From IMG/VR virus record IMGVR_UViG_3300025519_000044, positions 27,359 through 91,358 of that record: a stretch of 64,000 nt of DNA, one strand, 5' to 3'. Below, piece by piece: positions 21,101 through 61,406 of the stretch. The stretch is from a virus. A program made the translations under genes and the position numbers. The first letter of the stretch is position 1. Each line of letters begins with the position of its first letter. The notes beneath the pieces are model-generated. The model was not told the DNA's origin and made no database searches. It saw only the letters and a program-made list of their open reading frames with translations.

Positions 21101-21128
21101 AAAAAAGCCCTCGCAAATGCGGGGGCTT
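21101..21128. terminator. Hairpin terminator after lysis genes
   Basis: AAGCCCTCGC-aaat-GCGGGGGCTT; T tract on minus strand; conserved at ~59524-59549. Confidence 0.7.
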
Positions 21129-21155
21129 GAAATTTAAAAAATAACGTGATAATAT
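21127..21155 (+). promoter_or_regulatory. Sigma-A promoter of repeat-like RNA, copy 1
   Basis: TTGAAA-17 nt-TAATAT with extended TG. Confidence 0.75.
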
Positions 21156-21161
21156 CTTTTT

Positions 21162-21266
21162 AAAGGTATCGCGTCCTTTTAAAAAAAATGCGTGGATTGA
21201 AACTGTGAATTGGATATTTGAGCTAAGCCGAAACTGCCGGGGCTTATTCCTCGGCAGTTTTGCTTT
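21162..21266 (+). ncRNA. Solitary type I-C-like CRISPR repeat RNA (candidate RNA anti-CRISPR or crRNA-like guide), copy 1
   Basis: ATCGCGTCCTTTTAAAAAAAATGCG-TGGATTGAAAC (21168-21203), ~21 nt tail, terminator hairpin 21225-21265. Confidence 0.72.
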
Positions 21267-21336: not shown

Positions 21337-21729
21337 CTAAATATTTGTTTCCCAGGCATCCACAGTTGCTTTCATAGCTTCCATGGCATGTTTTTTTGTG
21401 GGAAAATGTTCTATGCCGGATTCCCCGTCATCGACATTGTAAGACGGAACTTCATCCGCATACGGATATTCCGGTCCCCAAGCGAAGAAGTAATTTCCAT
21501 TTTCGGCCTTCCCGACGGCGTAGGCCTCGCCGTTATTTGGGAAGTTGTCACGCAATTCAACGATTTCTAATACCTCCACTTTCAACTCCTCCTCTTTTTC
21601 CTCTACATATTTCCTCATCAATTGTCGGATGACTTCACTCTTGTTTTGCATCAGTGCTTCATTTACGCGGTCGAACCGATCAAGAAGGTCCTGATCAATC
21701 CTGTATTGCCTCGTACGTTTCACTTTCAT
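21337..21729 (-). CDS. Ribbon-helix-helix domain fused to acidic domain (Aca-like/Acr candidate)
   Basis: GGGAGG RBS; RTRQYRIDQDLLDRF..NKSEVIRQLMRKYVE pattern; homolog 60552-60944. Confidence 0.75.
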   Translation of the reverse strand: MKVKRTRQYRIDQDLLDRFDRVNEALMQNKSEVIRQLMRKYVEEKEEELKVEVLEIVELRDNFPNNGEAYAVGKAENGNYFFAWGPEYPYADEVPSYNVDDGESGIEHFPTKKHAMEAMKATVDAWETNI

Positions 21730-21766
21730 ACCTCCCATAACCAAAAAGATGGACACAACATGCGCA

Positions 21767-21795
21767 TTGACATGATAAAAGTTTGTGATTATAAT
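21767..21795 (+). promoter_or_regulatory. Perfect consensus sigma-A promoter driving the mini-array
   Basis: TTGACA-17 nt-TATAAT. Confidence 0.88.
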
Positions 21796-21800
21796 TAGTC

Positions 21801-21896
21801 CATGAACCATAACACAGGGTGTATTTAAATAGTATCTTTTTAATTAATTAACCTGTGCTATTTTTTATTGAACCGTAACATGAGATGTAAGGGAAG
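21801..21896 (+). CRISPR. Phage-borne mini-array (repeat-36 nt spacer-truncated repeat), I-B-like repeat family
   Basis: R1 21801-21830 CATGAACCATAACACAGGGTGTATTTAAAT; spacer 21831-21866; R2 21867-21889 ATTGAACCGTAACATGAGATGTA then degenerate. Confidence 0.78.
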
Positions 21897-21925
21897 AGGG
21901 AGCGAACATAAATCCGCTCTCTTTT
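21894..21925 (+). terminator. Terminator of mini-array transcript
   Basis: AGAGGGAGCG-loop-CGCTCTCTTTT. Confidence 0.65.
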
Positions 21926-22435
21926 CTATTTTTCCGGTTTCCCGAATTTTTCCGTAAGCGCAGTTTCTGATATAAACGTATAGGCGCCGTTACTTTTAAA
22001 ATGGCCATCCGGATAATCGGCGCCGTCTATCTCTTCCACCGATATGCCCCAAGTTTTTGCGGCATCCTTTGCTTCCCACACCTTAATGCCAAGTGGTTTA
22101 AAAGTTTTTCGCATTTCCCGGTACATTTCGTATGCTTCCGCGCGATTCTTTCGTTTGTTATTACGTTCTGCTATTATTTCCTTTATTTTATCGGCAGCCG
22201 CCAGAAACTCATCTTCATCTACTTCCCACGTTCCAACCGTTTTATAATCTGTTTGTAGTCTAGATTCGCTGTTGTCGAAAGTGGTTGACGGTAAAACCTC
22301 CCCAAGGCTGAATATGTAATCTTCCTTAACGGCATGTTCGACAATCGCAAATGCCTCGGCAGCTTTTGGTGTCCCCTTTACAAGCTCCGGGTAAACAGTT
22401 TCGGAATAAGACGTTTCTTTATACACAATTTTCAT
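21926..22435 (-). CDS. Hypothetical; acidic N-terminus, degenerate HTH-like C-terminus (Acr candidate)
   Basis: AGGAGG RBS; DAAKTWGIS..FISETAL..FG resembles winged HTH. Confidence 0.7.
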   Translation of the reverse strand: MKIVYKETSYSETVYPELVKGTPKAAEAFAIVEHAVKEDYIFSLGEVLPSTTFDNSESRLQTDYKTVGTWEVDEDEFLAAADKIKEIIAERNNKRKNRAEAYEMYREMRKTFKPLGIKVWEAKDAAKTWGISVEEIDGADYPDGHFKSNGAYTFISETALTEKFGKPEK

Positions 22436-22454
22436 TTTTGTTTCCTCCTAATTT

Positions 22455-22826
22455 TTATGCGTTTATTTTAGCGCCTTTAAATCTCCAAAACGCTTTTGTT
22501 ACCGGTGTATATGCGCCACGTTCTTGTGCCACAATAACACCGTTTTGCAATTCAAGAAACCCTTGTTCTTTACGGTATCCGGATCCTGTATAGTAATTTA
22601 CGTATAAGCGTTCCTTCCCGTATTTTGCCCAGTAGTTAACGGAATAGGAATCGCTCTTCATTACGGAATTGATGTAGGTTTCAACATCTTCCACCGTAAT
22701 TTCTTTTGCTTCTTTTGCCTCCTTCCATGCGAGCCGGAGAGATTCTGCAAAGTATTCCTTTACCTTTCCGCCAAATTTACGTTGCCCTGCTTTAGCAATC
22801 TCCCAAGCCCGTTTCATAACGTTCAT
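22455..22826 (-). CDS. Hypothetical, first gene of leftward operon (Acr candidate)
   Basis: AAAGGAG RBS; N-terminal ~38 aa shared with 61017-61406. Confidence 0.75.
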   Translation of the reverse strand: MNVMKRAWEIAKAGQRKFGGKVKEYFAESLRLAWKEAKEAKEITVEDVETYINSVMKSDSYSVNYWAKYGKERLYVNYYTGSGYRKEQGFLELQNGVIVAQERGAYTPVTKAFWRFKGAKINA

Positions 22827-57842: not shown

Positions 57843-58223
57843 ATGAAATACTTATCCGATCTTAATTGGTGGAAACAGACAGCAACATTGGTAGGCGGGG
57901 TGCTAACCGCATTGATTGCCTTTTTCGGGGCGCTTAATGTACATTTCCAATGGTTAACTGCAGACTCGGTTAATGCCTTTGTATCGCTAATCGTGGCGGT
58001 TGGGGCGCTGTTTGTCGGGTCTTTGGCGACATGGCTTAATACTTATCTGACCAGCAAGAAAAAGGATGAAGCAACCACAGTGGCGATCTCTTACGCACAG
58101 GACGCTGCGGCCAAAGAGGATGCCGAATACGAAAAAATTAAAGCTGTCGTGGCACAAGTATTGGAGGCACAAGGTGTTACGTCCACAGAAGAAGAAACAA
58201 AATCGTCAGCAACTACAAAATAA
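57843..58223 (+). CDS. Holin (two TM helices)
   Basis: Two hydrophobic segments; W.NTY motif; before lysin. Confidence 0.75.
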   Translation: MKYLSDLNWWKQTATLVGGVLTALIAFFGALNVHFQWLTADSVNAFVSLIVAVGALFVGSLATWLNTYLTSKKKDEATTVAISYAQDAAAKEDAEYEKIKAVVAQVLEAQGVTSTEEETKSSATTK

Positions 58224-58235
58224 GGAGTGGTAAAG

Positions 58236-59483
58236 TTGAATAAGATCACGAAAACAATCGGTGCGCTGGCCCTATCTGCAGGGTTGGCGTTTTCTTTTGC
58301 CGGCACATCATTTGCAGCAACGCCAAATATTGATTTTATTGACGTAAGCCACCATAATGCTGAACAGGGCTTGCCATTATCTTTCTACCAAACTATGAAA
58401 GCTGGCGGCATTAACTCAGTTGTAGTTAAAGTTAGTGAGGGACAAACATATGTAGATCCTGCTGCATCTGTCAACGTGGCTAATGCTAAGCAAGCAGGAA
58501 TGATCGTTAACGCTTATCATTATGCGCATTTTACAAGCAATGCTCAAGCTAAATCAGAAGCCCAATGGTTTGATAAAAAGCTTAAGTTAGTAGGATTTGA
58601 TAAGCAAAAAGATGGTTATGTAGTTGTGGATGTAGAGGATGGCTCGCTTGAAAGTGTGGGTGCTAGCAATCTCACAGAATATACAAATACGTTTATCAGT
58701 ACGATGAAATCTTTAGGCTATTCAAAGGTAGATTTGTATACCGGTAACTCATTTTATAATACGTACTTAAAACCAGGTCAATTAGCAGTAGATAAACCTT
58801 GGCTTGCCAGATACCCACTTTATCCGGAAACAGGCCAGCCGACACCAGTCTGGTACAATGGACAAAAAGGGGCTTGGCAATGGTCCAGCACATACAAGTT
58901 TGCTGGGATTCCCGGCTACTTCGATGTAAGTAAAGATTATGCAGGTAAATACACCAACGTGGCCACAGTGGAAAACGCGACCAACACTGGCGTGGTTAAA
59001 AAGATCGGATCCTTGTCACTGGTGGATTACTTGAAATCAGTTGGAAAAGATGCGTCATTTAATGCAAGAAAAGCTTTGGCAGCACAATACGGTATCTCTA
59101 ATTACACCGGATCCGCTGCGCAAAACCTGGCATTGTTGAGCAAACTCAAAAACGGTGTGCAGCCAACACAAAGTACATCCACAACCACGACATACACGGT
59201 TAAGCGTGGAGATACACTGTCCGGCATTGCGGCAAAATACGGCACGACCGTGGCAAACCTGCAAAAATTAAACGGCATCAGCAACCCTAATAAAATTTAT
59301 GTGGGGCAAAAGCTTAAAATCTCCGGCAGTGCCCCTGCAAAGCAGTATTACACGGTTAAGGTCGGGGACACACTGTCCGGCATTGCGGCTAAATATGGTA
59401 CGTCTGTCAGCCGGCTAGCAAGCCTAAACGGTATCAAAAACCCCAACCTTATCAGGGTTGGCCAAAAACTGCGGGTAAAATAA
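58236..59483 (+). CDS. Endolysin: signal peptide + GH25 + 2 LysM
   Basis: DVSHHN, KVSEG, AYHY and DVE motifs; SFA-A cleavage site; two YTVK.GDTLS.IA. Confidence 0.92.
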
Positions 59484-59547
59484 GCCGGAGCCGGCAATAA
59501 TAAGAATCCACCAGGAACAGCAGAAAAGCCCTCGCAAATGCGAGGGC

Positions 59548-59576
59548 TTGAAATTTAAAAAAACCAGTGGTAATAT
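59548..59576 (+). promoter_or_regulatory. Sigma-A promoter of repeat-like RNA, copy 2
   Basis: TTGAAA-17-TAATAT with extended TG; boxes conserved, spacer diverged. Confidence 0.75.
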
Positions 59577-59582
59577 ATCCAT

Positions 59583-59685
59583 AAAGGTACCGCGTCCTTT
59601 TAAAAAAAATGCGTGAATTGAAACTGTGATTTGGATATTTTGAAGCTGAAACTGTCGAGATTTTATGTCTCGGCAGTTTTGGCTT
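59583..59685 (+). ncRNA. Solitary type I-C-like CRISPR repeat RNA, copy 2
   Basis: ACCGCGTCCTTTTAAAAAAAATGCG-TGAATTGAAAC 59589-59624; tail TGTGATTTGGATATTTTG; hairpin 59643-59685. Confidence 0.7.
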
Positions 59686-59992
59686 AAATCCACTCTTTAA
59701 TATATTTTGCTGTTTCTATCGGGATATAACTTGTTGAGGTTTTTTGATAGTCTTTAACCCACACAAAACGGAATATATTTTGAGCTGTAACCAACACTAA
59801 AGTGTCAATCTTATCTATAATAGCCTTTTTAACCTCTACTTCTTTTTCAATTCCCATTGTTTTCATTATTTCTTCAGTTTGCATTCTGTAAAGGATCTCT
59901 TTTATAAAATCTTCCGGGTAGTCTTTTTTTAAAGCTTCAATGTTTACCTTTCCATCAATTACATATCTGTCTGTAACGTCTTGTATTTTCAT
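59684..59992 (-). CDS. Hypothetical (Acr candidate)
   Basis: GGGAGGT RBS before MKIQDV. Confidence 0.65.
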   Translation of the reverse strand: MKIQDVTDRYVIDGKVNIEALKKDYPEDFIKEILYRMQTEEIMKTMGIEKEVEVKKAIIDKIDTLVLVTAQNIFRFVWVKDYQKTSTSYIPIETAKYIKEWI

Positions 59993-60039
59993 CTTTGATA
60001 CCTCCCGTTTTGATGTAAGTGGAGCGGGTATTATTCCGC

Positions 60040-60507
60040 TCATTTTTCTTTTGGATTGTCTTCCAGAACCGCGTTTTCTCTCTCTAAATCCTTTATAAAC
60101 TCAGCAAAACTATAGTCCCGACGATCGATGAAGTAGGAAGCATCCGTTTTGTTTTTGATGATATAATTTCTGACTTGTTTCATTCCTTTTCGTATTTTCT
60201 CGTGATACTCAGGCTTGTACTCATGCAACATGTAATCCAGTCTTTCCTGATACAATTCACCAATTACATTCAGGCGGATTGAGTTTGCCCAGGCTACCTG
60301 CTTTTCACTTCCTGTTAATTCCGGCAGGCCCATTTCCTTTGCCGTTTCTACTGCTTTTTGATTTTCTTCCGCCAATTTTTTCTTCCAACATTCTGGGCAA
60401 AGTTTTGAAAATTCCTTTTTTTCTTTCCAATCCCGGTCTTTCACGGGCCCGTAAATCTGCACCCTGCCAGGATGCCCACATGCATAAACGCCTTCATGCC
60501 ATGCCAT
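60040..60507 (-). CDS. Hypothetical with CGH..CPEC Zn finger and LTGSEKQVAWA motif (Acr candidate)
   Basis: AGGAGG RBS; motifs visible in translation. Confidence 0.75.
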   Translation of the reverse strand: MAWHEGVYACGHPGRVQIYGPVKDRDWKEKKEFSKLCPECWKKKLAEENQKAVETAKEMGLPELTGSEKQVAWANSIRLNVIGELYQERLDYMLHEYKPEYHEKIRKGMKQVRNYIIKNKTDASYFIDRRDYSFAEFIKDLERENAVLEDNPKEK

Positions 60508-60551
60508 TTTTATTCCTCCTAATTTTTTATGTAGCCCCGGTTAACGGGGGC

Positions 60552-60944
60552 TTATTTTACATCCCAGGCCTCTACAGCTTCTTGTAGTTCCGCCATGGCC
60601 TGTTTTTCCGTGGCGTGCCAGCTTATTCCGTTCTCTCCGTCCGGGATGTTGTATGACGGCACTTCATCGGCGTACGGATATTCTGGACCCCAAGCGAAAA
60701 AGTATTTTCCATTTTCGGCTTTTCCGACGACGTAAGCCTCGCCATTGATTGGGAAGTTGTCCCGCATCTCGATAATTTTTTCAACCTTCACTTTCAATTC
60801 CTCCTCTTTTTCTTCCACGTATTTTTTCATCAGTTGGCGAATGACTTCACTGCCATTCACCATCAGCGCGTCGGTGACGCGGCTGAACCTTTCGGCTAGA
60901 TCTACATCAATTCGAAATGTCCGAGTTGTTTTCATTTTTTCCAT
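60552..60944 (-). CDS. Ribbon-helix-helix fused to acidic domain
   Basis: TTRTFRIDVDL..F..SEVIRQLMKKYVE; homolog 21337-21729. Confidence 0.78.
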   Translation of the reverse strand: MEKMKTTRTFRIDVDLAERFSRVTDALMVNGSEVIRQLMKKYVEEKEEELKVKVEKIIEMRDNFPINGEAYVVGKAENGKYFFAWGPEYPYADEVPSYNIPDGENGISWHATEKQAMAELQEAVEAWDVK

Positions 60945-60967
60945 TCCCCCTCCTTTATCTTGATTTA

Positions 60968-61003
60968 ATTATACCATAAACGTATTTACATGTAAATACG
61001 TTT
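60968..61003 (-). promoter_or_regulatory. Promoter with perfect 26-bp palindromic operator
   Basis: TTTACA-17-TATAAT; AAACGTATTTACATGTAAATACGTTT 60978-61003. Confidence 0.85.
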
Positions 61004-61016
61004 TTTAAATTTTTTA

Positions 61017-61406
61017 TTAAATCAATTTGAGTACTTCTTCGTACTCAACGGCTTTCTTTTCGCCGTTTTCAACGATGAAGTATTCGCGGTTATCGCCCGA
61101 TTTCTTTTCATATATGCCGTTTTCTTCGATGTAATAGAAATCATAACCTGTTTTCCCGGAGTATGAACGCTCTTTTTCGTCGGCTTTAAGGAATTGACGG
61201 TCCAGTTTATATTTTGGATGGCGGCCGACGATTTTCGCGACGTAGCAGCTTTTGTAACCGACCATAACGGTTACTTTCACGAATTTTGGTTGTTTCACTT
61301 CTTGCCAAGCCATTTTTAATGCGATTGCGAAATATTCTTTTACTTTACCTCCAAACTTCTTTTGGCCTTCACGTGCAATTTCCCAAGCGCGACGCATAAC
61401 GTTCAT
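61017..61406 (-). CDS. Hypothetical (Acr candidate)
   Basis: N-terminus shared with 22455-22826; C-terminus unrelated. Confidence 0.75.
   Translation of the reverse strand: MNVMRRAWEIAREGQKKFGGKVKEYFAIALKMAWQEVKQPKFVKVTVMVGYKSCYVAKIVGRHPKYKLDRQFLKADEKERSYSGKTGYDFYYIEENGIYEKKSGDNREYFIVENGEKKAVEYEEVLKLI

Follow-up and report, generated by a model that had tools for sequence, protein, structure and literature searches.

Immediately after the lysis genes of two Bacillus-type tandem prophages stands a small RNA gene, running from its own promoter through to its own terminator, in which a solitary CRISPR-like repeat is followed by a short spacer-like tail. The question that it raises is whether this tail guides a host CRISPR complex to a particular site, or whether the repeat acts by itself, as a decoy. 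The window, by which we mean the whole stretch of 64,000 nt that was analysed, makes up the final 64 kb of an IMG/VR virus record of 91 kb; it contains two related siphovirus-type prophages, arranged head to tail ~38.4 kb apart, with a large terminase ~60% identical to Bacillus phage terminases. Each prophage carries one copy of the cassette on the + strand, namely, copy 1 (21127–21266) and copy 2 (59548–59685), and, in each, a single repeat-like unit occupies the intergenic gap that follows the lysis genes. Judging by sequence comparison, the cassette probably specifies a phage-encoded type I-C crRNA-like RNA, that is, a Cracr-type RNA anti-CRISPR of temperate Heyndrickxia coagulans phages. 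Its parts are as follows:

59528–59547, + strand: hairpin at the end of the lysis operon, GCCCTCGC-AAAT-GCGAGGGC; within the shared cassette, abutting the −35; kept in 7/8 copies
59548–59576, + strand: sigma-A-type promoter, TTGAAA-17-TGnTAATAT, with extended −10; 9/12 matches, TG present
59587–59624, + strand: degenerate type I-C repeat (psiR); weak AT-rich hairpin, then an 11-nt handle
59625–59640, + strand: spacer-like 16-nt tail (psiS), TGTGATTTGGATATTT; tail positions 6 and 12 at 59630 and 59636, respectively
59643–59685, + strand: intrinsic terminator or 3′ hairpin with U-run, up to 19 bp in copy 2; z = −5.3
21127–21266, + strand: copy 1 of the cassette; promoter 21127–21155, psiR 21166–21203, tail 21204–21219, terminator ~21230–21262

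The promoter of copy 2 comprises the −35 hexamer TTGAAA (59548–59553), a TG dinucleotide (59568–59569) within the 17-nt spacer and the −10 hexamer TAATAT (59571–59576), which would place the transcription start near 59583. Copy 1 has identical hexamers and spacing (−35 at 21127, −10 at 21150), and in both copies the promoter sits 10 nt upstream of the repeat, within the 250 bp by which RNA anti-CRISPRs (Racrs) are delimited. An initial annotation of this DNA had read the differences between the two copies as selection acting on RNA features, and the differences that it listed are borne out: the −35, extended −10 and 17-nt spacing are kept, with 5/17 spacer bases changed; the repeat carries two differences, T/C near its 5′ end and G/A in the handle; the tail of copy 1, TGTGAATTGGATATTT, departs from that of copy 2 at position 6 only (position 17, beyond the tail, differs as well); and the pair-preserving changes in the terminator comprise one compensatory (G-C to A-U) and two single ones (C-G to U-G and G-U to A-U).

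Within the psiR of copy 2, the hairpin CGCGU...AUGCG (59591–59613) leads into the handle TGAATTGAAAC (59614–59624); the corresponding handle of copy 1 is TGGATTGAAAC (21193–21203). In the window copies this hairpin is weak, at −4.5 kcal/mol against −9 to −13 kcal/mol for host repeats, and its register is ambiguous. The terminator of copy 2 has its core stems at 59649–59660 and 59668–59679, and abuts the stop codon of a convergent gene (59684–60043). A canonical CRISPR array or mini-array has at least two repeats and a spacer of ~34–36 nt; there is no second repeat inside the cassette, and the terminator hairpin begins 18–27 nt past the handle. The handle of copy 2 is only 18 nt away from the 19-bp hairpin, so that the complex may hold as few as three Cas7 subunits.

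The block shared by the two copies is ~200 nt long and its flanks are non-homologous, the upstream neighbour being a holin for copy 1 and a GH25-LysM endolysin for copy 2; the cassette is, therefore, a discrete module. Its position is the same in all phages checked, right after the lysis genes, the preceding gene encoding a holin, a GH25-LysM or an Amidase_3-LysM protein. Moreover, a metatranscriptome contig (run X18) joins window position 59556 to 59704 with TA between them, indicating a close relative in which the entire cassette is missing, as are the last codons of the convergent gene, and, therefore, that the cassette is an accessory element; run X15 has a matching loose end. The window contains exactly two occurrences of the 28-nt pattern of handle plus tail, where 100 shuffles give an expectation of 0. 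An Rfam scan of 58000–61000 gave sub-threshold chance matches only, blastn searches of phage and plasmid collections with the cassette, and with handle plus tail, returned no related sequence, and sequence searches of the literature did not find the tail. Two metatranscriptomes from solid waste yielded RNA contigs over parts of the cassette, which, being contigs, are no evidence of transcription or of where an RNA begins and ends; in two RNA runs from isolates, coverage is confined to the endolysin parts of a relative.

Six more distinct copies were recovered when IMG/VR and metagenomes were scanned with sequence patterns: L003, L005 (the same as L009), L006, L010, L018 and L023. Together with the two of the window, this gives eight copies for comparison. 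Four of the six are closely related to copy 1 or copy 2, and L006 is a mosaic, its promoter being of one type and its tail and terminator of the other. In L018 the repeat is shorter, at the canonical 32 nt, and forms the stem CGCAU/AUGCG. The phage that carries L023 is more distant, and there the cassette follows an Amidase_3-LysM endolysin; the promoter (TTGACA-17-TATTAT) and the strong stem (CACGCCC/GGGCGUG) are different, while the tail is identical. A mini-ORF, MRELKL, starting at an ATG within the repeat, was considered and rejected, as it has no ribosome-binding site and there is no ATG in L023.

Several other matches were set aside. Two from the pattern scans (L007 and L011) were judged to be chance, as were the two matches from a scan of IMG/VR with host repeats, both of which lie in coding DNA. 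A repeat-anchored scan of genome contigs picked out a 15-nt I-C repeat end, TGCGTGGATTGAAAC, in a Ruminococcus MAG (L008:1924–1952, − strand), 29 nt upstream of a ptsH-like start codon; this too is probably a chance match, since the scan pattern is expected to yield a few. An unrelated phage contig (L031:5404–5426, − strand) has 23 nt of identity, covering TTGAAAT and the whole tail, in antisense orientation between or within structural genes; ahead of it come a GC hairpin and a stretch that resembles the handle and contains a 6-nt insertion, promoter and terminator are absent around it, and it may be due to chance (P roughly 0.02–0.04) or be a relic.

Across the eight copies the tail varies in only two columns, position 6 (A/T) and position 12 (T/G, with G in L018), the other 14 being invariant. 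Beyond it, all 12 of the positions 17–28 after the handle vary, and the handle itself varies at −11, −9 and −1, giving the forms TGGATTGAAAC, TGAATTGAAAC, TGGATTGAAAT and CGGATTGAAAT. Bases 6 and 12 of a guide are those flipped out by type I Cascade, and the chance of two variable columns of 16 being exactly this pair is 1/120, for a pattern that rests on two substitution events only. The initial annotation had predicted that variation among homologs would cluster at 6, at 12 and beyond 16, which is where the six added copies place it. Part of the conservation is ascertainment: L018 and L023 were retrieved with a pattern that fixed positions 1–5 and 7–11; two scans in which positions 1–6 or 6–16 were left free found no further tail variants. 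Copies 1 and 2 were not ascertained by their tails, and between them 1/16 tail positions differ, against ~30–50% of the neighbouring promoter spacer, leader and linker (P ~0.003–0.03 versus the tail).

The hairpins covary: three different repeat stem sequences share the same geometry, each ending exactly 11 nt before the tail, like real I-C repeats. Folding places a hairpin and then an 11-nt handle ending ATTGAAAY, as expected of a type I-C substrate, in 8/8 copies, with the qualification that an alternative hairpin register in both window copies gives 9 nt rather than 11; the real repeats were folded likewise. In the consensus fold, handle and tail are unpaired, and support is for the terminator only, at 14 pairs of which one is compensatory. 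Across the copies, conservation is higher in the tail than in the repeat stem. At window positions 21173 and 59594, both window copies have a stem G (CGCG) where 5/5 close relatives have A (CGCA); the shared G weakens and shifts the repeat hairpin, and may reflect gene conversion between the tandem prophages.

This pattern bears directly on the reading of the cassette as a pure decoy RNA anti-CRISPR, or Racr, whose repeat would bind Cas5c and Cas7 in aberrant, non-immune subcomplexes, the downstream sequence serving as a length spacer and terminator. There is much in the cassette to recommend it: like the Racrs described, RacrIC1 among them (Camara-Wilpert et al. 2023, PMC10651486), it is a solitary, intergenic repeat on a mobile element, here a prophage, with its own promoter; it resembles the repeat of its probable host in both sequence and fold, has a type I-C flavour, and adjoins small genes of no known function under an RHH regulator. 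In addition, a target for the tail was found neither in the window nor in seven phage records nor in IMG/VR. A decoy, however, needs no fixed tail, yet 14 positions are held constant while the next 12 vary and the changes within the tail fall only at 6 and 12; nor does it call for a tail whose conservation exceeds that of the repeat stem. Racrs have been described as acting by sequestration alone, whereas here it is the sequence after the repeat that is the more conserved and that has the guide-like pattern, and RacrIC1 is co-transcribed with acrIC5, whereas the cassette RNA has its own promoter and terminator (PMC10651486). A fixed tail with variation at 6 and 12 is more readily explained by a short Cascade guide than by a decoy alone, and we hold the decoy to be a real but distinctly weaker possibility.

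If the RNA is indeed a guide, the strong stand-alone promoter would give rise to a transcript of ~100 nt, starting a few bases before the repeat-like hairpin. Host Cas5c would cut at the 3′ base of the hairpin to leave the 11-nt handle, the 16-nt tail, a short linker and the terminator hairpin, the last of these presumably substituting for the missing second repeat. The RNA would load into the host type I-C Cascade, and thus compete with immune crRNAs, and the tail would pair via positions 1–5, 7–11 and 13–16, with positions 6 and 12 flipped out. Its putative target is a TTC-flanked site in a host promoter, reading TTC and then TGTGANTTGGANATTT; likely candidates are the promoters of the I-C cas operon, of a toxin guarded by CRISPR, or of a defence gene under I-C supervision. 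As 14 base pairs would be too few to license Cas3, the site would be repressed and not cut. A more particular version has a truncated I-C Cascade silencing a hitherto unrecognized CRISPR-supervised defence gene or toxin of H. coagulans, the GGATT and GAATT handles of the prophages giving coverage of two co-occurring host repeat variants; pinned down to this extent, the proposal is unlikely.

The idea of such a guide is not new, as both viral Cracr repressors and host type I-C crlRNAs have already been described (10.1101/2024.10.29.618823, 10.1101/2024.12.27.630466). Viral Cracrs consist of a single psiR, a psiS and a terminator, and repress cas or toxin promoters while soaking up Cas proteins; there are 219 candidates, type I-C and Bacillota among them, those tested being of types V-A, I-E and I-F, not I-C (preprint of 2024–2026, 10.1101/2024.10.29.618823). 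The cassette resembles them in being virus-borne and outside CRISPR-cas, in its single psiR, short psiS and rho-independent terminator, in adjoining candidate anti-defence genes, and in a short spacer that implies a smaller effector complex. Cracrs are defined by a match of at least 9 PAM-proximal bases, either to a CreR/CreA spacer of the host or to a PAM-flanked site within the promoter of cas or creT, and it is by layout that the cassette is likened to them. The host type I-C crlRNAs, which repress Nezha, Gabija and ‘CRISIS’ defence genes, offer a parallel in their single psiR cut by Cas5c, their 11-nt handle, TTC PAM and 3′ hairpin in place of a second repeat, and in a complementarity of ~16 nt (16 bp) with mismatches concentrated at 6 and 12 (10.1101/2024.12.27.630466). 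They are, however, chromosomal, with known targets, and sit between the cas3 and cas5c genes of the cas operon, whereas the cassette is found on phages after the lysis genes. The degenerate mini-CRISPRs CreA and CreR (Li lab, 10.1101/2023.03.10.532045) likewise use a partly complementary crRNA-like RNA to make Cascade a repressor without cleavage; they are encoded by the host, usually with a pair of degenerate repeats, and their role is to guard the CRISPR locus or autoregulate it, whereas the cassette is encoded by a parasite.

A seed search of the window and of seven related phage records found no TTC-flanked target for the tail. Scanning IMG/VR for TTC plus tail returned 49 matches, in clusters of related coding sequences from unrelated phages of 29–63% G+C; cas context was found for none of the 49, and they look like chance. 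These searches also weigh on the notion that the RNA guides host Cascade in phage–phage conflict or phage self-regulation, binding or, with longer pairing, cutting a rival phage or a phage promoter. Phage mini-arrays directed against rival viruses are known, and copy 1 has an I-B-like mini-array with a single spacer 500 nt away; a matching site is, however, absent from the seven related records, the IMG/VR matches are scattered, and the conservation ends at 16 nt, too short for interference, all of which makes this use of the RNA highly improbable.

Just as improbable, in our estimation, is that the RNA is a Cas-independent sRNA, its tail acting as an antisense seed on an mRNA of host or phage and its likeness to a repeat a relic, or, in a variant, that it is a guide for a type IV complex of the phage itself. 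The tail is unpaired between two hairpins, as are many sRNA seeds, and there is a type IV-like cas7 gene in the same virus record; neither the 6-nt periodicity of the tolerated changes nor the exact 11-nt handle after three different stems would, however, be expected of an antisense sRNA. Use of the RNA by type IV genes of the phage was rejected, as the Csf2-like gene concerned is absent from the complete phages G003, G004 and G005, which carry the cassette (it is absent also from G006). That gene (G000:C1:18132–18887, before the window) matches TIGR03115, a type IV Cas7 model, with E = 4e-22, below the curated cut-off.

The claim of the initial annotation that the RNA is a sequence-specific silencing guide, and not a pure decoy, is thus partly supported: it is strengthened by the tail pattern and by the identity of the L023 tail despite another promoter and stem, with the want of a TTC-flanked target in the phage records and IMG/VR on the other side, and it is as yet unproven. 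Should the RNA prove to be a guide, it would be a clear type I-C case of a phage RNA turning host Cascade into a repressor, with support that is comparative rather than by guilt of association. The 16-nt tail would then be a probe for a promoter supervised by the H. coagulans I-C system, possibly that of a new CRISPR-guarded toxin or defence gene, and handle, 16-nt guide and hairpin could together serve as a minimal I-C CRISPRi guide scaffold. H. coagulans is a probiotic and an industrial producer of lactic acid that resists genetic manipulation.

Within the 91-kb virus record, neither host DNA nor a Cas8c gene was found. The host is probably Heyndrickxia (Weizmannia, formerly Bacillus) coagulans, as suggested by the handle match, the I-B-like mini-array, the Csf2-like gene, the habitats of the runs and the CRISPR systems of this species: W. 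coagulans has I-C and I-B systems, and there are type IV cas operons in the prophages of strain DSM 1 (PMC8954581). Its I-C repeats end in GTGGATTGAAAT, or in GTGAATTGAAAT in strain H-1, and the cassette handle is the same as this 3′ end except for the last base, C/T (PMC8954581 Table 4). Indeed, the G/A pair that separates the handles of copies 1 and 2 also separates GTGGATTGAAAT from GTGAATTGAAAT. Compost, food fermentation, plant material and bioreactors are the sources of the DNA runs in which the stretch occurs, as would fit H. coagulans.

The mini-array itself (21767–21925 of the window, ~500 nt from copy 1) is promoter-driven and has one spacer; nothing equivalent is present in prophage B. 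Its first repeat ends TGTATTTAAAT, with ~23/28 aligned bases matching the W. coagulans I-B repeat (PMC8954581), and its second repeat is degenerate.

Both cassettes are followed by leftward operons of small genes (21337–22826 and 59684–61406), in a layout typical of acr-aca loci. Each includes an RHH (CopG/Arc-like) regulator (21337–21810 and 60552–60944) and a PF07410 Gp111-family protein (22455–22826 and 61017–61406), along with ORFs that belong to no family; no known Acr family was matched among the small genes of these operons.

Additionally, one contig that is filed as viral (L004:1–14002) is a complete type I-C locus, in which cas2-cas1-cas4 and cas3-cas5c-cas8c-cas7 occupy opposite strands. 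The locus lies between two arrays of different repeats, with the stems CACTCC/GGAGTG and CACCC/GGGTG, respectively, both of which end GTGGATTGAAAC.
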